A DNA stretch of 16,553 bases from Deinococcales bacterium (GTDB taxonomy: Bacteria; Deinococcota; Deinococci; Deinococcales; JAAFIG01): positions 1 through 16,553 of the forward strand of contig JAYWGM010000081.1 of NCBI GenBank assembly GCA_043778225.1, written 5' to 3'. Every line of letters begins with the position of its first letter. The first letter of the stretch is position 1. Below are positions 236-13,176 of the stretch, in pieces. The notes under the pieces are model-generated. The model was not told where the DNA came from. It worked only from the letters and a program-made list of their open reading frames with translations, and made no database searches. A program made the translations under genes and the position numbers.

Positions 236-1630
236 TTATTTTTCGTCGGTTTCGATACGGTTAAAGCCTTTTGGCGCACCAACTTTATTGGCAATTACTT
301 CCTCGAGGTACTTGACCACATTTTTAAGCGGCACACGGTTCAGCACATCCTCGAGAAACGCCGTGACCAGCATTTTCTCAGCAATGGGTTTGGTAATCCC
401 TCTCGAGCGCAAATAGAACAGTTCTTGTTCATCCACTGGCGCGGTGGTGCTGCCGTGGCTACAACGCACATCGTTGGCGTTAATCTCGAGTTGCGGCACA
501 CTGTCCGAACGGGCTTCGTCGGAAAGCAATAATGTGCGGTTCTTCTGGTAGGCATCGGTTTTTTGTGCGTTTAATTCGACTTTGATTAGCCCCGAAAACA
601 CGCCCCTTGCTTGGTCTGCCAGTACACCCTTAAAGAGCAAATCCGAATGCGCCCGAGGCATAATGTGATGCTGCAAAGTCTGCTGGTCAAAGTGCTGGTC
701 TTTATCAGCAAAGTAAATTGCCAGCATTTCCGAACTCGAATTGGTTTGCAAAGCACTTTGCACCTCGGTTCTGGACAGGCTCGAACCCATTGTTACATAC
801 AAACTATTCAGTACCGCATCCGACTCGAGGTTTGACTTGATGCGCTGAATGTGGGTCACACCACGACCCCAGTTTTGAATTGCCACATAACGCAAATTTG
901 CACCTTTACCAAGGAAAAGTTCAACCACACCAAAATTAGCTGATTTGAGGTCTGGGCTGTCCTGCTCGTCAATATAAGTGACCTTGGCATTCTCCTCGAG
1001 AACCACGAGTGTGCGCGAAGCCACAAAAGCACCGTCCTGCTCGAGATAACGAAAACCACCAAGTGGCAAGTCAAGCTCGACATTTTTTGGCACATACAAG
1101 AAAAAACCGTTCTCCCAAAAAGCAGCGTTTAACGCCGTGAACTTATCTTCGTCCAAATGCGGAATATGTTCATACCGCTCGAGGGCAAGGGCGCTTGGGT
1201 CTGGGTACGCCGCGCCAACCACACTGTACAAATACTTCTGTACAAGGTCTGGGTGTTTCTCGAGGGCGGTTTTGAGGTCTGTAAAAATAACGCCCTTCGA
1301 CTCGAGTTCAGACGGCACATCCGAGTAAATAACAGAATTACCAGACAGCACAATGCGACCAGCCGCATCGGTGCTAGACAAACGCTCACGAATTTTTTCA
1401 GGTAGTGCCTCGAGACTGCTGATTGGGCTAACGGCATTGGCTGGAACGAAATTCTCGGGTTTGAAACGCCGCAGATTCGTGTACTTCCACGCTTCGACTG
1501 CTGTAGAAGGCACAGCGCGGTCAGTGTAAATCTCGAGGGCAGAAGCTCGAGCTTTGAGCAGCCATGCGGGTTCGGCACGGCTCGAGATGGCGGAAAGATT
1601 GAAGGGCGATAGGGTGGTTACTTGGGTCAT
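236..1630 (-). CDS. sufD: Fe-S cluster assembly protein SufD
   Basis: EAWKYTNL N-terminal motif; beta-helix with QKTDAYQKNRTLLLS, PQLEINANDVRCSHGST and LFYLRSRGI. Start placed at ATG 1630 behind an AGGAG RBS (ORF track extends to 1696). Confidence 0.93.
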   Translation of the reverse strand: MTQVTTLSPFNLSAISSRAEPAWLLKARASALEIYTDRAVPSTAVEAWKYTNLRRFKPENFVPANAVSPISSLEALPEKIRERLSSTDAAGRIVLSGNSVIYSDVPSELESKGVIFTDLKTALEKHPDLVQKYLYSVVGAAYPDPSALALERYEHIPHLDEDKFTALNAAFWENGFFLYVPKNVELDLPLGGFRYLEQDGAFVASRTLVVLEENAKVTYIDEQDSPDLKSANFGVVELFLGKGANLRYVAIQNWGRGVTHIQRIKSNLESDAVLNSLYVTMGSSLSRTEVQSALQTNSSSEMLAIYFADKDQHFDQQTLQHHIMPRAHSDLLFKGVLADQARGVFSGLIKVELNAQKTDAYQKNRTLLLSDEARSDSVPQLEINANDVRCSHGSTTAPVDEQELFYLRSRGITKPIAEKMLVTAFLEDVLNRVPLKNVVKYLEEVIANKVGAPKGFNRIETDEK

Positions 1631-1655
1631 GATTGATTTTCTCCTAAAAGTGTTA

Positions 1656-2204
1656 TTACAAGCATCGGTTTTCCGTTTTTCCATCAAAGTAAACATGTTT
1701 TGAAGACACAGCTATAGTTCGGTCATTTGGCGTAAAAAACCCATTTTCTCGTGACAATGAATGGTCACTAAGGCAAGCACCTGCAAATTGACCTGAAGTC
1801 ACATCGTAGACCTGCCATTCCAAAGATGGATTTACACGTCGCGTAATTTGCGAGGCAGGGAATAGATCGTTAGGACGAATCTTAGGGTATTGGATACTAA
1901 AACTCCATTCAGAATTTGGCTCTGTATCAGCTTTTGACAAATCGTAAAAGGTGACATACACGACTTCTCCCACTTCGGGAACATTATAGATTAGTATTCG
2001 AGCATTTTTTATTTTTACCTCTTGAAAAGGGAAATCCTTATATCCATTTGGAGATGAAATCAATCGAGACAATAATTCGTTGACCGAAAAATCCAGTCTA
2101 CTTGCATTGGGCAAATTACCAGAACGAGCATAATAATAACGAGGAGGTTGCATACAAGAAACAAAAAGACAAAGAAGGCATATCACAATTAATTTTTTGG
2201 ACAT
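1656..2204 (-). CDS. Hypothetical lipoprotein (cassette cargo)
   Basis: 182 aa; MSKK, a hydrophobic stretch and a lipobox-like FVSC; no recognisable domain. Confidence 0.65.
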   Translation of the reverse strand: MSKKLIVICLLCLFVSCMQPPRYYYARSGNLPNASRLDFSVNELLSRLISSPNGYKDFPFQEVKIKNARILIYNVPEVGEVVYVTFYDLSKADTEPNSEWSFSIQYPKIRPNDLFPASQITRRVNPSLEWQVYDVTSGQFAGACLSDHSLSRENGFFTPNDRTIAVSSKHVYFDGKTENRCL

Positions 2205-2227
2205 AAAGTTTTCCAGTTTTATCTCGC

Positions 2228-2286
2228 GTAGGATGGGCTTTGCCCATCAACTTATATCCGACTATCTTCTATTTCTTTCTCGAGCC
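2228..2286. repeat. GTAG-REP-containing leader, copy 1 (GTAG-GATGGGC-TTT-GCCCATC) ending in a truncated cassette repeat
   Basis: Perfect 7-bp stem after GTAG (2228-2248); about 59 bp homologous to 4124-4181. Confidence 0.8.
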
Positions 2287-2289
2287 AAA

Positions 2290-2547
2290 TCACCTTTCGT
2301 AAATTTTGCTTCTATGCCCAACAGCGATGAGCGTCACCACCCGTTCTACTTCATTGACATTAAAAATCAGTCTGTAATCACCAACTCGAGTCCGAAATGA
2401 TTGTCGGTCTGTTAATTTAAGTACACCTTGCTTGAATGGATTCTCGAGAATAAGCTCAACTTCTTTAACAACCCTCTTTTGGATTTCCTCAGGTAAATCT
2501 TCAAACTCTTTATTAAAATGCTTGGAAAGTTGTAAAGCAAACCTCAT
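2290..2547 (-). CDS. relE: RelE/ParE-family type II toxin
   Basis: 85 aa with KL...FRTRVGDYRLIF...VGHRSKIY motifs; ATGA overlap with the upstream gene. Confidence 0.9.
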   Translation of the reverse strand: MRFALQLSKHFNKEFEDLPEEIQKRVVKEVELILENPFKQGVLKLTDRQSFRTRVGDYRLIFNVNEVERVVTLIAVGHRSKIYER

Positions 2548-2726
2548 TTTAAGCCCACTCGAGCCTGAAGTTCTTCAAGTGTTGTCGGGATTACTTCGTC
2601 GTTAGCACGTTCAATAAGAATTTGTTTGTGCCATGTCTCCTCGAGCATTTGTTCGTACTCCTCGAGTGGCAGTAAAACAAAGGTATTTCCTGTCTCATCT
2701 GTAATTTGCTGATGGGCTGTAAGCAT
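2544..2726 (-). CDS. Antitoxin partner of RelE (acidic, Phd/YefM-like VLL.LEEYE segment)
   Basis: 60 aa, acidic, translationally coupled upstream of relE, AAGGAG RBS; paralogous to 4463-4708. Confidence 0.75.
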   Translation of the reverse strand: MLTAHQQITDETGNTFVLLPLEEYEQMLEETWHKQILIERANDEVIPTTLEELQARVGLK

Positions 2727-2753
2727 TTTTATACTCCTTTCTTCTATTCTTTT

Positions 2754-2773
2754 CTCGAGCCTTGGCTGCTTGC
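2754..2773. repeat. Cassette-boundary repeat CTCGAGCCTTGGCTGCTTGC
   Basis: Exact consensus copy touching the vapC stop codon (2773-2775). Confidence 0.9.
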
Positions 2774-3180
2774 TAGGTTCTTTCTATCCAATTCTCGAGT
2801 CTCAAACCCCGAATTCTTGCAAAATGCTTTGTATTATCTGTCACCAGTACCGCTTGTTCGTATAAAGCAGTTGCAGCAATTAACGTGTCGGCATCTTCAA
2901 TAAGTTTTCCTTGGGGTTTAAGTTGTTGATAAATTTCGGATGCAGTATCTAAAATTTCTATGTTCAACATAATAATTTCAGCTTTGCTTAGAAAGGCTTT
3001 GAACTTACTAAGTTTTTTCTGGTATTTAGGAAGCGTTAAGCCTCGAGTAATTTCATAATAATTGATTGCGCTGATTATGAAAACATGACCATCATCATGT
3101 AGGAATTCAAGGGTTTTCACAACAACTTCGTTATCCTCGATAATGGCAGAAATAATATTTGTGTCAGGCAAGTATTTCAT
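2773..3180 (-). CDS. vapC: VapC PIN-domain toxin
   Basis: 135 aa with YLPDTNIIS, YYEITRGL, DADTLIAATAL and LVTDNTKHF. Confidence 0.92.
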   Translation of the reverse strand: MKYLPDTNIISAIIEDNEVVVKTLEFLHDDGHVFIISAINYYEITRGLTLPKYQKKLSKFKAFLSKAEIIMLNIEILDTASEIYQQLKPQGKLIEDADTLIAATALYEQAVLVTDNTKHFARIRGLRLENWIERT

Positions 3181-3434
3181 TGATTAGCTGCCCGCCAAGG
3201 TTGGCGTTTTATGGCTTCTTTGAATTCGGCTAAATCTTCGGCTGGCATCGGTTCGGCGAGTTCACGTAGGATTTGTTTGAATTCGTCTTTTTCAGCTTGC
3301 GTTCTTTGCGCTCGAACATCTGGCAAATCTGGATATTTGAAAGCGGGGTCTGAATCAATAACTTTTTTTAGGCGCTCGAGGGTGACTTCGTTCATTTGGT
3401 CTAAGCGTTGTGTAATTTCTTCGCGCATGGTCAT
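3177..3434 (-). CDS. Putative VapB-role antitoxin
   Basis: 85 aa from ATG 3434 (GAGGTG RBS); ATGA overlap with vapC; shares PDVR..RT..E...LAEP with three paralogues. Confidence 0.8.
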   Translation of the reverse strand: MTMREEITQRLDQMNEVTLERLKKVIDSDPAFKYPDLPDVRAQRTQAEKDEFKQILRELAEPMPAEDLAEFKEAIKRQPWRAANQ

Positions 3435-3453
3435 GGTTTCACCTCTGGCTTGA

Positions 3454-3552
3454 TTATAGGGCTTTAGCTCGAGCTTTGAGCAGCCATGCGGGTTTGGCAC
3501 GGCTCGAGATGGCGGCGGGGTTGAACGGCGATTGGGTGGTTAATTGGGTCAT
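3454..3552 (-). pseudogene. sufD: Truncated duplicate of the sufD 5' end (32 codons)
   Basis: Reads MTQLTTQSPFNPAAISSRAKPAWLLKARAKAL*; 3466-3552 matches 1544-1630 at 79/87 nt by hand alignment. Confidence 0.9.
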
Positions 3553-3559
3553 AATTACC

Positions 3560-4072
3560 TCAGAGACTAAAAACATCTTCAATCACAATATTCTTGAATC
3601 GTTCATCGAGATTGAATTTGACGGCTCGTATAACATCTGTTGGAATTGAAAAATAGACAAATAAGCCTTTACTGGAATTTGAATAGAAAGAGACCGATTC
3701 ATCATTATTAAACGAATCTACTGCCCCAGAAATTTGGTATGCAACGAATTTTTTTGAATCTGATGTTTCTATTGACATATATTTTGGTGATAAAATAGCT
3801 GTCACATCTCCTGATAAACTTGTCCAAGAAATGTCACACAGAACTTTAGACTTATCTGTGGGGTTTCGCAAGCAACCAGAAAACTCTACTTTTAGTTTGT
3901 TGCCTCGAGTATCGACATAGGTGATTGACCGCTTCGATTTTTCAATAATTGTTGCGTTACTCGAAGTGTTTGTACTATTGGTCACACTAGGGGATGTTGT
4001 AATCGAGTTCTGATTAGGCATACATCCTGTGAATACCATAGCGCCAATTACAGATATGATAATTTTTTTCAT
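3560..4072 (-). CDS. Hypothetical lipoprotein (cassette cargo)
   Basis: 170 aa; MKK, hydrophobic stretch, lipobox FTGC, S/T/N-rich linker, then a beta-rich domain; GGGAG RBS. Confidence 0.75.
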   Translation of the reverse strand: MKKIIISVIGAMVFTGCMPNQNSITTSPSVTNSTNTSSNATIIEKSKRSITYVDTRGNKLKVEFSGCLRNPTDKSKVLCDISWTSLSGDVTAILSPKYMSIETSDSKKFVAYQISGAVDSFNNDESVSFYSNSSKGLFVYFSIPTDVIRAVKFNLDERFKNIVIEDVFSL

Positions 4073-4123
4073 ATTTTTCTCCCAACACTTTACTTGACTT
4101 CTTTTTCTTGAGTTTCATCTCAT

Positions 4124-4193
4124 GTAGGATGGGCTTTACCCATCGAATTATAGCCGACTATCTTCTACTCTATCTCGAGCCTTGGCTGCTTGC
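4124..4193. repeat. GTAG-REP-containing leader, copy 2, plus a full cassette repeat (4174-4193)
   Basis: GTAGGATGGGCTTTACCCATC at 4124-4144; TATAAT on the minus strand; repeat abuts the relE stop at 4194. Confidence 0.85.
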
Positions 4194-4466
4194 TTATTTA
4201 TAAATATCTTTGCGCCTACCAACTTTTCTTACTTCTAGCACTTGTTCATCTCTTATAAAAATAATTCTTAAATCTCCGACTGCTAAACGATATTGTCCCT
4301 TAAATTCGCCTTTCATTTGCTTTATATCACCCATTGCTTCGGCGCACAGTATCAGCAACGCAGCCCATAGTTGTTCTTGTTCTAAACGTTCTAGCTTCCC
4401 AAATTCTTTAGCAGCTTTCTTAACAAAACGCAGTGCGTATGGCACATCTCGAGGGTGAATACTCAT
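4194..4466 (-). CDS. relE: RelE/ParE-family type II toxin
   Basis: 90 aa with GDIKQMKG...YRLAVGDLRIIF...VGRRKDIYK. Confidence 0.88.
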   Translation of the reverse strand: MSIHPRDVPYALRFVKKAAKEFGKLERLEQEQLWAALLILCAEAMGDIKQMKGEFKGQYRLAVGDLRIIFIRDEQVLEVRKVGRRKDIYK

Positions 4467-4708
4467 GGTTCTATTGGGAAGTTCTTGGGTAGTTCAAGTT
4501 GAGCTTGCAATTCCTCGGCACTGATGGTTTCATTGTTCTGACTTTCAATTACAGCTAGGCGTAAATCAGTTATGGCATCCTCGGTTAATTCTTCGTCGTC
4601 ATGGTCGTAAATACCATTTTGCTTTTTGAAAACCTCGTACTCCTCGAGCGACAAAAGTACAAAAGTTTGACCCGCTTCGTTGGTTAATTTTTCGTGAGCT
4701 GCTATCAT
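4463..4708 (-). CDS. Antitoxin partner of RelE
   Basis: Acidic; MIAAHEKLTNEAGQTFVLLSLEEYE aligns with 2544-2726; alternative start at 4720; ATGA overlap with relE. Confidence 0.75.
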   Translation of the reverse strand: MIAAHEKLTNEAGQTFVLLSLEEYEVFKKQNGIYDHDDEELTEDAITDLRLAVIESQNNETISAEELQAQLELPKNFPIEP

Positions 4709-4762
4709 TAGTTTAACCATCCTTTTTTTGTTTAACTCGAGCTACCTACATTTTATTCTTTT

Positions 4763-4782
4763 CTCGAGCCTTGGCTGCTTGC
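4763..4782. repeat. Cassette-boundary repeat
   Basis: Exact CTCGAGCCTTGGCTGCTTGC, 7 nt from the vapC stop at 4790. Confidence 0.9.
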
Positions 4783-4789
4783 TTATGCT

Positions 4790-5200
4790 TCACATAACGC
4801 CATCTTCCCAGTTTTCAAATCGAATTCCTATTACTCGAGAAAAATGCTTTACATTTCTGGTTATCAGTACGGCTTTATGGCGAATGGCTGTGGCTGCAAT
4901 GAGTGTATCGGAAATCCCAATGTCGTTTCCTGTGCTGGTCAATTCAAAATGGATGCTCGAGGCGGTATCAGCCGCTTCTTTGTCGAACCATAAACAGGGG
5001 TAAGTGTTGGCAAATTGCTCAAGCCGAGCAAGTTTGAGGGCATATTCGGGTTTGAGTAATCCTCGTTTGGCTTCCCAGAAAACGATGGGACTAAGAGTGA
5101 TTCGGTGAAGTTCCTGTACGGCGCGATTCAACCGAGCTTTACAGGCTTGATTTTCATTAATTATTTGTGAAACAAAATTAGTATCTAAAGTGTAAAACAT
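4790..5200 (-). CDS. vapC: VapC PIN-domain toxin
   Basis: 136 aa with YTLDTNFVS, FWEAKRGL, SDTLIAATA and LITRNVKHF. Confidence 0.92.
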   Translation of the reverse strand: MFYTLDTNFVSQIINENQACKARLNRAVQELHRITLSPIVFWEAKRGLLKPEYALKLARLEQFANTYPCLWFDKEAADTASSIHFELTSTGNDIGISDTLIAATAIRHKAVLITRNVKHFSRVIGIRFENWEDGVM

Positions 5201-5440
5201 TTATTTCTCGTATAACCAAGGACGGTCTCGTTTTAAGCCTTCGTTATATTCGGTTAAATCAATTCCAAGTGGTTCTGCAAGTGCTTCGGTAGCATCTAGT
5301 AAGGCTTGGGTTTCTTCTGGTGTCCGATTTTCTCGAATATCAGGGTATTCATCGTTTGCCTGTTCAATTTGCTTGATAAATTCGGCGTACTCAATTGGGT
5401 TTAGATTTTTGACTTGATGGACAATTTCAGCGACTGACAT
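5201..5440 (-). CDS. Putative VapB-role antitoxin
   Basis: 79 aa from ATG 5440 (GGGGG RBS); stop directly abuts the vapC ATG; YPDIRENRTPEE...LAEP motif. Confidence 0.78.
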   Translation of the reverse strand: MSVAEIVHQVKNLNPIEYAEFIKQIEQANDEYPDIRENRTPEETQALLDATEALAEPLGIDLTEYNEGLKRDRPWLYEK

Positions 5441-5482
5441 AAAACCCCCTTTGCTTCTTTGATTGTAACGCTTTTTAATTTT

Positions 5483-5502
5483 CTCGAGCCTTGACTGTTT
5501 GC
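5483..5502. repeat. Cassette-boundary repeat (degenerate)
   Basis: CTCGAGCCTTGACTGTTTGC, 18/20 to consensus. Confidence 0.8.
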
Positions 5503-5511
5503 CAATGCCAA

Positions 5512-5550
5512 TCAATTCTTATAAACCTTGCTCCGATGCCTTACCGTGCT
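5512..5550 (-). pseudogene. C-terminal scar of a deleted RelE-type toxin
   Basis: Reads STVRHRSKVYKN* versus IAVGHRSKIYER* of the RelE at 2290; followed by a boundary repeat. Confidence 0.6.
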
Positions 5551-5964
5551 TTATTCACGGCTATCTTCGATCCAATTTTCGAGCCTGATGTTTGGTACTC
5601 GAGCAAAATGCTTGGTGTTATTCGTAATGACTACTGCTTGATGCCGAATGCCTGTAGCTGCAATTTTGACATCTTCTTTGTCGAGTTGTAAACCTTGTAT
5701 TTCTAAAGTGTGGTAAATATCGGCTGCATACTCGGCAGATAAAGCATCAAAAGGTAAAACCCTGAACTTATTTGTTAATTTTTTTAAGGCAGCTAATTTT
5801 TTGAAAAGTTGTGGTTTTAATAAACCTCGTTTGACTTCAAAGTACGAAACTGCGTTCATGGTGATGTCGTGACCCTCAAAGGCTTTGATATGAACAAACA
5901 TTTCAAGCGCATGATTTTCATTCACAATTCCAGAGATGGTATCTGCATCCAAAGTATAAAGCAC
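5551..5964 (-). CDS. vapC: VapC PIN-domain toxin
   Basis: GTG start at 5964 behind an AAGGA RBS; LYTLDADTIS, YFEVKRGL, EDVKIAATG and VITNNTKHF. Confidence 0.9.
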   Translation of the reverse strand: MLYTLDADTISGIVNENHALEMFVHIKAFEGHDITMNAVSYFEVKRGLLKPQLFKKLAALKKLTNKFRVLPFDALSAEYAADIYHTLEIQGLQLDKEDVKIAATGIRHQAVVITNNTKHFARVPNIRLENWIEDSRE

Positions 5965-5971
5965 ATTTTCC

Positions 5972-6187
5972 TTAACGCTGCATGGCTGCATTGAACAGAT
6001 TTTTTTCTTCTGTGGTCATTGGTGCGGCAAGTTCAGCCAATAACGTTTTGATTTCCTGCATTTCTTCTGGGCTGCGCTCAACTCGGACATCTGGATATTC
6101 GTATGACTCGAGAATTTTGTTCAACCATTCAATTCGCTCAGACGACATTGTTTCTATTTTTTGGTGTAGTTGTTCTTTGGTACTCAT
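5972..6187 (-). CDS. Putative VapB-role antitoxin
   Basis: 71 aa; YPDVRVERSPEE...LAAP; GAGGTG RBS; directly upstream of vapC. Confidence 0.8.
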   Translation of the reverse strand: MSTKEQLHQKIETMSSERIEWLNKILESYEYPDVRVERSPEEMQEIKTLLAELAAPMTTEEKNLFNAAMQR

Positions 6188-6224
6188 GATTTCACCTCTG
6201 GCTTTATTCTAGCGCTTTTACTAG

Positions 6225-6244
6225 CTCGAGCCTTGGCTGCTTAC
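6225..6244. repeat. Cassette-boundary repeat
   Basis: CTCGAGCCTTGGCTGCTTAC, 19/20 to consensus; abuts the stop at 6245. Confidence 0.88.
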
Positions 6245-6469
6245 TCATGCAAACTCGAGTTCGGCTGTTCTGCCCGCACTTGGGTCTTGTTCCACCAATG
6301 CCCGCACTAGCGTCTCGAGCCGCAATGCTACGCCCATACTATGCGCTCTGAGTTCTTCACCATCTGGTAAATGATGGATATGGGTTGGAACTCCTTTTAT
6401 TGTGACATGAACTCCTTCTCGAGTAGTAATTTTATAATCCATTTTAACTTCATTAAGAATTTGACTCAT
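6245..6469 (-). CDS. YgiT/MqsA-like (cysteine-less) putative antitoxin
   Basis: 74 aa from ATG 6469 (AAGGAG RBS); G.V.I.GVP...GEE...VA..LE.L pattern; downstream of a DUF4258-like gene. Confidence 0.65.
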   Translation of the reverse strand: MSQILNEVKMDYKITTREGVHVTIKGVPTHIHHLPDGEELRAHSMGVALRLETLVRALVEQDPSAGRTAELEFA

Positions 6470-6477
6470 TTCGCTCC

Positions 6478-6792
6478 TTAAATTGTATGAACTGTAATAA
6501 CTAAGAAGTTGTTGACCCAAGCCACTTTGGTACGAATCCAGCGCCCATCTGCAATTTTATACTCAAAATTAATTCCTGGAATGCGTTTGTTGGAATTTCG
6601 CGGTAAATCTTTACTTACGGGTGTACCTACTAAAATAGTCTCGAGAACAGCAACAAGTGGAATTTTTTCTTTATTGGCTTCTTCTTGGGCGTGTTCGCTA
6701 ATTTGAATTTCTTGGAAAATAAGGGCTTGGTGAATTGCGTCTAATTCTGATTGGAGTATTTCTGGTGTTGAAAAATTGAATGGGTTTCTCAT
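6478..6792 (-). CDS. DUF4258-like putative toxin
   Basis: 104 aa with ISEHAQEE...I....V.E.I..G and C-terminal LVITVH, typical of DUF4258. Confidence 0.75.
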   Translation of the reverse strand: MRNPFNFSTPEILQSELDAIHQALIFQEIQISEHAQEEANKEKIPLVAVLETILVGTPVSKDLPRNSNKRIPGINFEYKIADGRWIRTKVAWVNNFLVITVHTI

Positions 6793-6881
6793 AAATTATT
6801 ACTTACCAAAACCTTTGTGCGTACAACCTGATCTTTTTTGAGCATTGCACTGATGGTATTAGAATCGAGCAAGTAAATCAT
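6789..6881 (-). pseudogene. vapC: Truncated vapC (first ~25 codons only)
   Basis: MIYLLDSNTISAMLKKDQVVRTKVLVSNNL* carries the PIN N-terminal motif; ATGA-coupled to the upstream antitoxin. Confidence 0.8.
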
Positions 6882-7120
6882 TGAATCTCTCGGCTATGGG
6901 GGCGGCGTTCTAGGGCTTCAAGCAACGGATTAATATTTTCGTTTGGCTGAGTTGCCGTAAAAGCATCTAAACGCTGATTAAAAAGCGCTATTTCCTCTGG
7001 GGTTCGTTGCACTCGCACATGAGCAGCTTGACGATGTTGGGTCAGGAGCGTATTCAACCACTCGAGGTCAGCTTGGCTCATGGTGTCAATGGTTTGTTTT
7101 ACTTCTTCTCGAGTTATCAT
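6878..7120 (-). CDS. Putative VapB-role antitoxin (toxin partner truncated)
   Basis: 80 aa, paralogous to 5972-6187 (I.TMS....EWLN, VRV.R.PEE); same GAGGTGAAATC-ATG leader. Confidence 0.78.
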   Translation of the reverse strand: MITREEVKQTIDTMSQADLEWLNTLLTQHRQAAHVRVQRTPEEIALFNQRLDAFTATQPNENINPLLEALERRPHSREIQ

Positions 7121-7160
7121 GATTTCACCTCTAGCTTTATTGTAGCGTTTTTATGATTTT

Positions 7161-7180
7161 CTCAAGCCTTGGCTGCAAGC
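7161..7180. repeat. Cassette-boundary repeat (degenerate, CTCAAG core)
   Basis: CTCAAGCCTTGGCTGCAAGC, 17/20 to consensus; 1 nt from the stop at 7182. Confidence 0.8.
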
Positions 7181-7181
7181 T

Positions 7182-7406
7182 TTATGTAAACTCGAGTTCA
7201 GCGCGTCTGCCCGCACTTGGGTCTTGGGCTACCACGGCTTTAACCAATGCCTCAAGCTTGAGTGCCACCGCAAAACTATGTGTTTGTAGTTCCTCTCCAT
7301 TTTCGTAATGGCGTAAACGAGTTGGAACACCTGTAATTTTAACGTACACACCTTCGGGAGTGGTCACGTCGTATTCCATTTTGATTTCGTTCAGAATTTG
7401 GCTCAT
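7182..7406 (-). CDS. Orphan YgiT/MqsA-like putative antitoxin
   Basis: 74 aa; 49/74 identical to 6245-6469 by hand alignment; no DUF4258-like gene upstream. Confidence 0.7.
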   Translation of the reverse strand: MSQILNEIKMEYDVTTPEGVYVKITGVPTRLRHYENGEELQTHSFAVALKLEALVKAVVAQDPSAGRRAELEFT

Positions 7407-7454
7407 AGGTTCTACCTTCATTTGGAGTTTAGCGCCTTTGGTTTTTCAAAATCA

Positions 7455-7784
7455 TTATATCATTTCAAGGATTTTATCCGATATAAGTTTTGTTTCAGCA
7501 ATGACTTTTTGTTGTTGGAGTTGACTTTCCCATGTTGTTGCCCAAGTCAATTGCCATTGCGCGAGTTGGATTTGATATTGCACCAGAATTTCTGAAATTT
7601 CAGGTGTTGTTTCAGTAGCAGTCCATTCAATAAAACGTACACTTTCAGCTAATAAGTTTCGTACACTTTCTGAAGTATTTTTCTTGGCAAATACACTCAC
7701 TCGGTTGAGATTAACTGCCAAATTGCCAAGTCGTCTCGAGATTGGGTCTTTAACAAATTTTTCTTTTCGAGCGTATTCGGTCAT
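7455..7784 (-). CDS. Hypothetical helical protein (type recalled as a DUF5674 neighbour)
   Basis: 109 aa, RLGNLAVNLNRV...ES..FIEWTA...Q.QLA.WQ; AGGAG RBS. Family link is from recall only. Confidence 0.65.
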   Translation of the reverse strand: MTEYARKEKFVKDPISRRLGNLAVNLNRVSVFAKKNTSESVRNLLAESVRFIEWTATETTPEISEILVQYQIQLAQWQLTWATTWESQLQQQKVIAETKLISDKILEMI

Positions 7785-7888
7785 GGTTTTACTCCTGCAA
7801 AGAGTTTTGTAACTATTTCTTGGATTTGTTGTCGCAAAGTAGGGTCTTGTACTGGAGTGACTTTTTCTTGAATAATTTGGATGCTCAT
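7781..7888 (-). pseudogene. 35-aa ORF, probable internally deleted DUF5674-like gene
   Basis: MSIQIIQEKVTP-VQDPTLRQQIQEIVTKLFAGVKP*; ATGA overlap with the next gene; looks like the N- and C-termini of DUF5674 joined. Confidence 0.5.
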
Positions 7889-7900
7889 GATGTCCAATTT

Positions 7901-7923
7901 GGGGTTTGCAAAATGCAAACCCC
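7901..7923. terminator. Perfect hairpin after sufB (terminator or mRNA-stabilising stem)
   Basis: GGGGTTTGCA-AAA-TGCAAACCCC, a 10-bp stem 7 nt after the sufB stop; no good U-tract on the minus strand. Confidence 0.55.
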
Positions 7924-7930
7924 TTAAATT

Positions 7931-9361
7931 CTAGCCGACGCTGCCTTCCATCTCGAGTTCAATTAAGCGGTTGAGTTCCACGGCGTACTCGAGTGGGAGT
8001 TCTTTGGCGATGGGTTCGATGAATCCGCGTACAATCAGTCCTGTTGCGGCTTCCTCGGACAACCCTCGAGACATGAGGTAGAACACTTGTTCATCGTTAA
8101 TTTTAGAAACGGTGGCTTCATGTCCAACCGAAGCAGTTTTTTCTTCAATTTCGATGTACGGGTACGTGTCAGTTCGGCTGTCATCATTTAACAAGAGCGC
8201 GTCGCATTCGACGTTGCTTTTGGCATTTTTTGCCCCGTCATAAATTTTGACTAACCCACGGTAACTCGAGCGACCATTGTTTTTGCTAATGCTTTTAGAC
8301 ACGATGCTCGAGCTTGTGTTGGGTGCAAAATGCACAACTTTGCCACCAGCGTCTTGGTGTTGCCCTGTGGTTGCCATGGCAATGCTCAGAATCTCGCCAC
8401 GAGCGCCCGGCTCGAGCAAATACGTGGCTGGGTATTTCATGGTGACTTTGCTGCCGAGGTTGCCATCCACCCATTCCATGACTGCGCCTTCGTAGACGGC
8501 TGCCCGTTGGGTCACAAGATTGTAAACATTGTGCGACCAGTTTTGAATCGTGCTGTAACGCATCCGAGCGCCTTTTTTGACAATAATTTCGATGACACCA
8601 GAGTGGAAGCTGTCCGAGGAGTAACTAGGTGCGGTGCAACCTTCGATGTAATGGGCGTAAGCACCTTCATCAATAATAATCAGGGTGCGTTCAAATTGCC
8701 CAGAATTTTCGGCATTAATCCGAAAATACGTTTGCAATGGCACTTCGACTTTTACACCTTTTGGCACATATACAAAGCTACCACCAGACCAAACGGCGCT
8801 GTTGACGGCGGCAAATTTATTGTCTTCGGGCGGAATGACTGTGCCAAAGTGTTCACGGAAGAGTTCTGGATGTTCACGCATTCCATCTTCGATAGACAAA
8901 AATATCACACCGAGCTTTTCCCATTCTTCTTTCAGGTTGTGGTAGACCATTTCTGATTCGTATTGAGCGCCAACACCTGCCAGCATTCCGCGTTCGGATT
9001 CTGGAATACCAAGTTTATCAAAAGTGCGTTTAATATCGTCTGGAACATCGTCCCAAGTTCGACTGTTGAGCATATCGGTGGGTTTGATGTAATAATAAAT
9101 GTTCTCGAGGTCAAGCCCACTTAAATCTGCGCCCCATTTTGGAATTGGTTTGCTGCGGTAAATGTCGAGCGCTTTCATGCGAAACTCGAGCATCCAAGCG
9201 GGTTCGTCTTTGGATTTACTAATCAGTTCAACCACGTCTCGAGATAAGCCTTTGGGGGCTTTAATCGTGTATTTTTCTGGTTCTGACCAGCCAAATTCGT
9301 AACCATCGTTAATTTTTCCAACGGCGGCATCGGGGATGTTATCGGAGTATTGTTGGGTCAT
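7931..9361 (-). CDS. sufB: Fe-S cluster assembly protein SufB
   Basis: 476 aa with GVGAQYESE, DNKFAAVNSAVWSGGSF, GQFERTLII, YIEGCTAP, HEATVSKI and ELEMEGSVG. Confidence 0.97.
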   Translation of the reverse strand: MTQQYSDNIPDAAVGKINDGYEFGWSEPEKYTIKAPKGLSRDVVELISKSKDEPAWMLEFRMKALDIYRSKPIPKWGADLSGLDLENIYYYIKPTDMLNSRTWDDVPDDIKRTFDKLGIPESERGMLAGVGAQYESEMVYHNLKEEWEKLGVIFLSIEDGMREHPELFREHFGTVIPPEDNKFAAVNSAVWSGGSFVYVPKGVKVEVPLQTYFRINAENSGQFERTLIIIDEGAYAHYIEGCTAPSYSSDSFHSGVIEIIVKKGARMRYSTIQNWSHNVYNLVTQRAAVYEGAVMEWVDGNLGSKVTMKYPATYLLEPGARGEILSIAMATTGQHQDAGGKVVHFAPNTSSSIVSKSISKNNGRSSYRGLVKIYDGAKNAKSNVECDALLLNDDSRTDTYPYIEIEEKTASVGHEATVSKINDEQVFYLMSRGLSEEAATGLIVRGFIEPIAKELPLEYAVELNRLIELEMEGSVG

Positions 9362-9720
9362 AAAGCTCCTTGTGAGGCAGGGGTTTTCTCGAGAATGCTG
9401 ATGAACTCTGTATAGCCGAAATCATCCATCATGCCGTTTGAACCGTACTGATAGACACGCAACTTGTATTGAAATCCAGCTTCGTGGGTAAAACCTTTAA
9501 TTGAACCATGAAAAAAAGTATTGCTGACGGAAGTATCGCGGACTTGGATGCAGTTCTGGATAGATTCTGGTGGGGCTGATGGACGTGGGTCGGTGTAGCC
9601 GCCAAAGCCTCCTGAACAAGGCTTGGTCTGTGCTGCGACTTCAACGGTTTTTACAGTCACACTGCGAACATTACAAGCAACCAAAGCTAACGCCAACGGA
9701 ACAAAAAATCTTATCTTCAT
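9358..9720 (-). CDS. DUF4377-like lipoprotein
   Basis: 120 aa from ATG 9720 (GGAGG RBS); lipobox LVAC; CIQVR...IKGFTHEAGFQYKLRV resembles DUF4377; ATGA overlap with sufB. Confidence 0.7.
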   Translation of the reverse strand: MKIRFFVPLALALVACNVRSVTVKTVEVAAQTKPCSGGFGGYTDPRPSAPPESIQNCIQVRDTSVSNTFFHGSIKGFTHEAGFQYKLRVYQYGSNGMMDDFGYTEFISILEKTPASQGAL

Positions 9721-11360: not shown

Positions 11361-11996
11361 TTAAGTGCGAATAATGATACCCTCTAAAGTCTGCCGAACC
11401 ACATTTTGTGCCATGGCTTTGGCACTTTTGGCGGTGGTGGTTTTGCTGATTGGACTCTCGAGGAGAATGGTGCTGAGCCCGTGAACCACGCTCCATAAGG
11501 TTAAAGTTAAGTTCTGTGGGTCGCTTTTTTGAATTTGATTGGCAGCCTGTGCCTCGAGAATTGTAGTTTGTAGCACCGCTCGGGCATCTATTCCAGCCAC
11601 CTCGAGCGGGTCTGGAAGTCCGAACGCAGCGCAGAGTTCACGGCGAAACATAAACCGAAATTCGGCATGGTGTTCATAAGCAAACATCACATAAGCAATG
11701 CCAATCTGTTCAAGTTGCTCGAGCGGGCTGTGTTTTTTTTGCTTGGCGTTTTTTAGGGCATCGGTCAGCTTGCGAAAGGCTTCGATTGCCAAGGTACGAA
11801 TTAAATCTTGTTTATCCAAAAAGTGATGGTACGGCGCAGCAGGGGAGACGTTCGCCCGACGAGCCACTTCACGCAACGTAAAGTTGTCCACACCAATTTC
11901 GTTGGCGAGTTCTCGAGCCGCCTCGAGCAAGGTATTTTTAAGGTCGCCGTGGTGATAGCGCTCTGGTTTGACTTGGGTTGCACTTAAACTTGACAT
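11361..11996 (-). CDS. TetR/AcrR-family regulator (WHG-type C-terminal domain)
   Basis: YHHGDLK...TLREVARRANVSPAAPYHHF HTH; C-terminal LWSVVHG. Confidence 0.93.
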   Translation of the reverse strand: MSSLSATQVKPERYHHGDLKNTLLEAARELANEIGVDNFTLREVARRANVSPAAPYHHFLDKQDLIRTLAIEAFRKLTDALKNAKQKKHSPLEQLEQIGIAYVMFAYEHHAEFRFMFRRELCAAFGLPDPLEVAGIDARAVLQTTILEAQAANQIQKSDPQNLTLTLWSVVHGLSTILLESPISKTTTAKSAKAMAQNVVRQTLEGIIIRT

Positions 11997-12012
11997 TGTT
12001 TAGATTCTAGCA
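11986..12012 (-). promoter_or_regulatory. Leaderless tetR promoter with an operator over the start codon
   Basis: Minus strand TG-C-TAGAAT, 7 nt, ATG, with no RBS; imperfect palindrome AACTTGACATTGTTTAGAT also found at 13113-13131. Confidence 0.65.
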
Positions 12013-13056: not shown

Positions 13057-13077
13057 GTAGTATGGGCTTTTGCCATC
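13057..13077. repeat. Degenerate GTAG-REP copy
   Basis: GTAGTATGGGCTTTTGCCATC versus GTAGGATGGGCTTTGCCCATC at 2228. Confidence 0.6.
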
Positions 13078-13111
13078 GGTAGGTTCTCGAGCCGTGGTTT
13101 GAATAAAAAGC

Positions 13112-13176
13112 AAACTTGACAATGTTTAGATTGTAGTTTATCTTAACACTGTTCAATATCTAAGCATCGTTTAGAT
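13112..13176 (+). promoter_or_regulatory. Sigma70-type promoter with three TetR-like operators
   Basis: TTGACA (13116-13121), 17 nt, TATCTT (13139-13144); related palindromes at 13113-13131, 13140-13158 and 13158-13176. Confidence 0.7.

Follow-up and report, generated by a model that had tools for sequence, protein, structure and literature searches.

The window, by which we mean the whole stretch of 16,553 nucleotides, is contig C81 of the Deinococcales genome G000, which is 89% complete. On the minus strand it carries, in this order, sufC, a gene for a DUF4377 lipoprotein, sufB (9361-7931) and sufD (1630-236), the last two separated by 6.3 kb with small genes. Most of these are of toxin-antitoxin type; Pfam assigns three of them to PIN, two to ParE/RelE, one to Phd-like and one to DUF4258 proteins. 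The distance of 6.3 kb between sufB and sufD is about twice the largest complete interval among the relatives (1.4-3.2 kb in the nine that have one), and in G002 the two genes are 2 nt apart. Throughout the family this gap is a variable toxin-antitoxin array (window 1631-7930, loci L031-L050) of 1.4-6.3 kb, empty in G002, and the last gene before sufD differs in most of the genomes. A literature search for toxin-antitoxin arrays at this position gave only papers that, by their titles, look unrelated.

Next to sufB, the conserved upstream flank, lies an upstream array (4111-7900, minus strand) with two PIN genes, ParE, DUF4258 and unknowns. It contains five copies of a repeat, R (7149-7181, 6213-6245, 5471-5503, 4751-4783 and 4162-4194), and a further copy lies at 2742-2774. 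R is confined to the suf locus in this genome, save one weak match on contig C51, and its pattern was not found in the displayed arrays of other genera. The upstream array allele ends with the lipoprotein-like ORF A (3560-4072, minus strand, 170 aa, no Pfam match, lipobox recognized by eye). The downstream allele, on the same strand, consists of a vapB-like gene (3434-3177, no Pfam match) with vapC (3180-2773, PIN), a relB/phd-like antitoxin gene (2726-2544) with a RelE/ParE toxin gene (2547-2290), an orphan vapC tail that starts at CTCGAG and is followed by a hairpin of the GTAG type (2215-2286), and the lipoprotein-like ORF B (1656-2204, 182 aa, no Pfam match), which is its last gene. A copy of the tail and hairpin, 86% identical, precedes ORF A at 4111-4181; the hairpin is presumably REP-like. 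The layout vapBC-relBE-hairpin-lipoprotein-sufD start is present twice in the window, the paired proteins of the two units being only 22-48% identical; ORF B and ORF A are unrelated (22% in a forced global alignment).

Some observations on the surroundings may be given here. Hairpins starting with GTAG, which we take to be of the REP type, are found at 190-222, 2228-2249, 4124-4145 and 13057-13078. The DUF4377 lipoprotein gene (9358-9720) overlaps the start of sufB; it is present between sufC and sufB in G004 and absent there in G003. A 25-nt site, a probable TetR operator, occurs in near-identical form (92%) at 11986-12010 and at 13112-13136, before tetR and before a divergent epimerase gene, with an SMI1/KNR4 gene between the two. 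The array of G004 is a mosaic, with a downstream-type vapBC joined to an upstream-type relBE. In a single low-depth piece from run X3 of another study (joint 4790-6225) a vapC-like tail stands between two copies of R, 22 nt from each other, which is a further arrangement of the array, and in G005 (L035:2381-3652) a 423-aa ORF, which we take to resemble IscB/HNH proteins, adjoins the start of sufD. Relatives of the same toxin-antitoxin genes form a second operon-internal array, lacking R, on contig C98 of the same genome (16676-19928), between genes that we presume from their translations to be gcvT-like and gcvH-like.

Between ORF A and the vapB-like gene lies a 5' stub of sufD, 95 nt long (3552-3458, minus strand; codons 1-31 plus CT), which matches the start of the intact sufD in this window at 84 of 95 positions and sufD of G003 at 86 of 95; 1.9 kb separate it from the intact gene downstream. 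The earlier note had described it as 87 nt at 91% identity to the true start of sufD, with a ribosome site GAGGT of its own and a different upstream sequence, and apart from the length this is confirmed: 79 of 87 positions (90.8%) agree over 3552-3466 against 1630-1544, with a longest exact run of 29 nt and an E-value of 3.6e-28 in a search against the genome, and the sequences upstream of the two starts differ. The GAGGT (3561-3557, in the segment 3553-3562) overlaps the stop codon of ORF A, to which the start of the stub may once have been translationally coupled. Read onward, the frame of the stub gives a 32-aa ORF with the stop TAA at 3456-3454. The stub is without a predicted function and is likely the remnant of a once-functional sufD allele.

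Misassembly is ruled out as far as it is testable with the available runs. The earlier note had proposed spanning reads as a check, and in each of two runs one unitig crosses the join with no gap and 0 differences: 7,999 nt at depth 26 (479-8477) in X1 and 8,002 nt at depth 14 (479-8480) in X2. These runs are possibly the source samples, and unitigs are contigs, not raw reads, so that the check stands at the level of unitigs. Runs X3 and X4 yielded scattered short pieces only, uninformative on the join. No second sufD stub was found for certain in the 18 other family genomes, several of whose intervals are broken by contig ends; an extra sufD match in G002 is a 49-nt contig overlap, and a metagenome scan for more sufD starts gave one match, a chance and unrelated one. 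G016 has two ends of the type "last gene plus sufD start" on separate contigs (L049:4447-4517 and L016), 67/71 identical, explained by a mixture of two strains or by another scar.

The stub and the intact start differ at 11 positions. Among the intact sufD genes of five congeners, eight of the stub states and nine of the intact states recur, an AAA/TCT codon swap being one of those found in relatives, and three of the 11 stub states are private. Judged by these states, the divergence of 9-12% reads as allelic rather than as decay. The earlier note had attributed the 9% to a different-strain donor or to an old event; the allelic origin is borne out by the 8 of 11 states present in the sufD of relatives, and decay is not what the differences look like. 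The two starts also have 29 identical nt in common that five relatives do not show, and both carry the lineage-specific LLKARA stretch. The intact gene together with its native ribosome site GGAGAAAATCAATC (1644-1631) occupies 236-1644 on the minus strand, and the 14 nt of the site are identical to those before sufD of G007. Sliding identity along sufD reveals no donor-recipient boundary; against the five congeners the body of the gene is 76-96% identical in 150-nt windows, so that a long homologous anchor is available there.

A lipoprotein gene like ORF A directly before an intact sufD, for which the earlier note had advised to search, does exist: the closest and only homolog, in G008 (1 of 18 family genomes), ends 13 nt before the intact sufD, with the reservation that it is 30% identical and belongs to another genus. 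Considering this arrangement and the native ribosome site of the intact sufD, two array alleles were likely fused here, and sufD remains intact because the second allele supplies its own start and ribosome site. Thus, of the earlier proposal that a new block brought its own sufD start, the two alleles and the intact gene with a native leader are retained, and either block may have been the incoming one. Within the family, the vapBC of the downstream block is matched best in the G004 and G007 suf arrays (81% at the DNA level) and its relBE in that of G005 (81%). These matches, the low identity of the paired proteins (22-48%) and the length of the sufB-sufD interval also favour the fusion.

The join lies in a 21-nt block, CAAAGCTCGAGCTAAAGCCCT (3458-3478, minus strand), which includes a CTCGAG at 3468-3473, as had been stated earlier. 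The block is sufD-like throughout and at the same time resembles the vapB leaders of relatives: its first 11 nt match the leader in G007 (11/11), with which the join has CAAAGCTCGAG in common, and its last 16 nt agree at 15 positions with the leader in G005, so that a short shared sequence is present at the join. No single relative has the whole block in a leader, and it is pieced from two. At the breakpoint the intact sufD reads GCTCGAGCTAAAGCCCTCGAG in G006 and GCTCGAGCCAAAGCCCTCGAG in G001 and G007. The intact genes of G006, G001, G003 and G007 encode ARAKAL, as does the stub, and the intact gene of the window encodes ARASAL; since the stub reads like the sufD of relatives, it tracks sufD over 95 nt, as far as the "CT" (3458) of the CTCGAG that follows. 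The claim that sufD identity ends at the CTCGAG has accordingly to be corrected, as the relatives' sufD carries the match 10 nt further.

Past the join, the similarity to a vapB leader that had been pointed out is confirmed (82.7% over 52 nt against 6184-6235). This leader (3435-3457) has a TATAAT-like box (3458-3453) and a GAGGTG ribosome site; a promoter and terminator scan at the join gave nothing above shuffles and no full promoter was called, and Rfam had no match. The vapB leader of the G005 suf array is 93% identical to the join over 61 nt beginning at CTCGAG, which would allow a crossover at the hexamer. A crossover between the core of R and the CTCGAG, as suggested originally, is more than the data bear: judging from the matches, it can lie anywhere within the near-match 3458-3478. 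The short-spaced leader is found in this genome and G005 only among 19 genomes, apart from one unrelated match with two mismatches; given this distribution, the G005 leader may descend from a similar join. A single join cannot demonstrate the use of CTCGAG, because three copies occur in the first 100 nt of sufD, 58% of the positions 21-110 of the gene are at most 6 nt away from a copy, and the genome has 6.17 per kb.

The hexamer is indeed abundant: G000 has 24,877 copies, 27 times the base-composition expectation. Its density is 4.2-8.9 per kb in all 19 family loci, and it is absent from all 6 loci of family f3. A literature search with few subscription papers in reach turned up no description of CTCGAG as an iterated palindrome. 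Among its flanked forms CCTCGAGG is far rarer than the others (243 against 1,117-2,203 copies), and TTCGAA (34) and GTCGAC (49) are strongly avoided; the rarity of all three may point to restriction targets. Eight matches to the Eco57I family, possible sources of a methyltransferase that marks the hexamer, were found in the genome.

Joins of a similar kind were sought as gene ends repeated in two copies; the two-copy filter was added after a CRISPR array dominated the first scan, and both the filter and the threshold of 6 nt were chosen after seeing G000. In this genome 6 of the 12 candidate scars break no more than 6 nt from a CTCGAG of the intact gene against a null of 12.7%, and in G013 (2.4 of 5.1 Mb scanned; 7 rows, 6 distinct events) 2 do so against 8.3%, which by itself is not significant (P about 0.08, by hand). 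Pooled, 8 of 18 breaks (44%) are near a CTCGAG with 2.0 expected (P 4e-4), or 7 of 17 without the sufD case. Curation by eye removed seven rows due to shadow ORFs or internal repeats (C2, C3, C18, C92:164; L089, L101, L123); in the curated set 6 of 11 are near CTCGAG, and 5 of 10 without the sufD case (P 0.003). The other breaks (10 of the 18 candidates, 5 of the 11 curated) lie elsewhere, and the near ones are at differing offsets (0, 2, 5, 6 nt). The curated scars affect genes of aldehyde dehydrogenase, a metalloenzyme (presumably deoB-like), phosphoglucomutase, valyl-tRNA synthetase, DAG kinase, AlbA-HATPase, a thioredoxin-reductase-like protein and recG, and the gene-end scars other than that in sufD enclose ParE, PIN, XisHI, BrxD/helicase, SMEK or AlbA inserts. 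Stranded 5' or 3' copies of housekeeping genes, with toxin-antitoxin or defence inserts between the copies, can be seen at L191-L196 (G000 contigs C48, C80, C89, C65, C4 and C91), L086:7545-8313 and L150:15352-18744.

Within the suf arrays, the orphan tails of vapC and "LEFA" mostly begin at an in-gene CTCGAG, often in a longer match such as AGGCTCGAGAA; the exceptions are in G007 (about 9 extra nt) and G003 (no CTCGAG), and many of the tails are of common ancestry. Such tails form intergenic CTCGAG-to-CTCGAG tiles, some 2-3 deep (L031:1-5868, L032:330-1000, L038, and 2215-2286 with 4111-4181 in the window). At the ends of homology blocks in 16 arrays, 78 of 554 have a shared CTCGAG against a background of 5.0%, which is a 2.8-fold enrichment; the ribosome-site word AGGTGA is enriched there 14-fold. 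The block-end enrichment is not counted as support, since it is confounded by gene boundaries and kinship.

We consider it rather probable that the stub was stranded when a one-sided homologous integration (homology-facilitated illegitimate recombination, HFIR) fused two different versions of the toxin-antitoxin array between sufB and sufD. The DNA of a relative, presumably taken up by natural transformation, would pair along an extended conserved flank, the body of sufD being the simplest choice, and its other end would join at the 21-nt near-match of sufD codons 25-32 with a vapB leader. The side of the anchor we infer; as to direction, an incoming downstream block would be the simplest choice by analogy with the other scars, and the mirror event would give the same product. 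The genome has comEC and dprA, and these two genes suggest a naturally competent host. According to the available parts of PMC6382021 and PMC2884548, HFIR combines one long conserved flank with a join at a short match, and an event of this type is proposed for the growth of Vibrio immunity arrays in the part of PMC5361080 at hand. The present case has in common with HFIR the short match at the join, the lack of an integrase, the competence genes and, as far as the conserved body of sufD provides it, a long homologous flank on one side; it departs from it in the join (up to 21 nt against the 3-10 nt quoted in the portions consulted), in the hyper-abundant palindrome and in being inferred from genomes, not measured. 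It is a known, ordinary route of gene gain, and the stub is a clean case of it. Several points weaken the fusion: the "empty" arrangement in G008 is a 30% homolog in another genus and not a conspecific parent allele; the 21-nt block is assembled from the leaders of two relatives, of which the G005 leader is possibly itself the product of such a join; no donor-recipient boundary shows in the sliding comparison of sufD; competence is deduced from two genes; and the LLKARA stretch in both sufD starts fits a duplication inside one chromosome as well.

Such a duplication would run in tandem from the vapB leader to base 95 of sufD, via the same near-match, the copies being later overwritten by the alleles of relatives. 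The parallel layout of the two units, the 29 identical nt unseen in five relatives and the mosaic nature of arrays such as that of G004 all agree with it; however, with gene pairs only 22-48% identical and the leaders of sufD different, nearly the whole of one copy would have to be replaced between short flanks, and we find it quite improbable. A copy of a 95-nt target made at insertion, with subsequent drift, is the least credible of the possibilities, to the point of being hardly tenable: direct repeats of about 95 nt over a translation start do flank an insert that has no mobility gene, as in the part of PMC2853133 available, but the differences are allelic, the native leader of the intact copy lies outside the repeat and the insert has no restriction genes. 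In that source (Furuta 2010, as far as it is accessible) restriction-modification genes are inserted with long target duplication; inserts are below 20 kb, direct repeats above 30 bp extend over start or stop sites, and the species are for the most part competent ones. The repeats here, 95-99 nt around 1.8 kb, formally fit this description but are two alleles with different leaders (84/95), and the cargo is PIN, ParE and unknown ORFs. A site-specific cassette system with R as its recombination site, either integron-like or an element replacing 5' ends, is also very improbable and already largely refuted. Six R copies stand between gene pairs and are nearly confined to the suf locus; yet the join is inside sufD and not at R, and R varies in spacing and sequence. 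The window and the inserted block have no integrase (three tyrosine recombinases are on other contigs), IntI is absent above the cut-off from the 89% complete genome (TIGR02249, best 39.5 of 265 bits), and within 80 nt of seven R or CTCGAG sites no GTTRRRY core was found on the plus strand (RYYYAAC at 2 of 7). Integration of SXT/R391 in prfC replaces the 5' end of that gene, and here likewise the target gene is restored by a new 5' end with the old start stranded; the difference is again the missing integrase.

The remaining question is whether CTCGAG takes an active part in the fusion that we favour. A nick, break or strand exchange aimed at the palindrome, perhaps in methylated form, would be similar to what is proposed for HIP1, which the available parts of PMC4390886 and bioRxiv 2024.09.10.611283 link to site-specific recombination and higher transformation. 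The roughly fourfold enrichment of breaks (8 of 18 in the pooled set; 5 of 10 curated without sufD) and the in-gene starts of the orphan tails are in favour of it. On the other hand, 10 of 18 breaks are elsewhere, the offsets vary, block ends prefer AGGTGA, G013 alone is 2/6, and a nuclease of the XhoI family is found in none of the 19 family genomes; moreover, the rate equals the passive prediction. Exact matches of 8, 10 and 12 nt between two places of G000 contain CTCGAG in 21%, 32% and 39% of cases. One copy per 160 bp thus seeds a third of the 10-nt chance matches, so that joins often contain the hexamer and no enzyme has to be assumed. On present numbers passive microhomology seeding suffices for 8 of 18, the predicted 21-39% being near the observed 44%. 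CTCGAG therefore probably acts passively, by supplying chance matches, and active use has a low probability in our opinion. We also doubt, somewhat less strongly, the wider idea that CTCGAG is a working joining signal in this Deinococcales family, by which toxin-antitoxin and defence genes are spliced in with one homologous flank and the arrays are cut into reshuffled CTCGAG-to-CTCGAG tiles.

Among the systems described elsewhere, the T6SS immunity arrays of Vibrio cholerae (Kirchberger 2017, PMC5361080, in the part available) together with orphan Rhs tails are similar in that an array of variable content, next to a conserved gene, is extended by an appended allele, in sequential displacement, and strands pieces of genes. 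Here, by contrast, the suf operon carries type II toxin-antitoxin pairs as cargo, and what has been left over comes from the 5' end of a housekeeping gene. HIP1 of cyanobacteria is, in the accessible portion of Elhai 2015 (PMC4390886), a short, hyper-abundant palindrome for which a link to recombination has been suggested; ours is another word in another lineage, at about 6 per kb, and joins are enriched at it yet not dependent on it. Whether a highly iterated palindrome has an active role is a question that cyanobacterial HIP1 raises too. Gene-end scars are joins that can be counted, and a null from word statistics (21-39%) now exists against which such a role can be tested. If CTCGAG were a joining signal, the scars would document, for the first time on a genome scale, that a highly iterated palindrome has a function. 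As for the locus itself, under the fusion of two array alleles that we favour the scar lets one read with unusual clarity how a variable toxin-antitoxin array grows inside an essential operon without an integrase.
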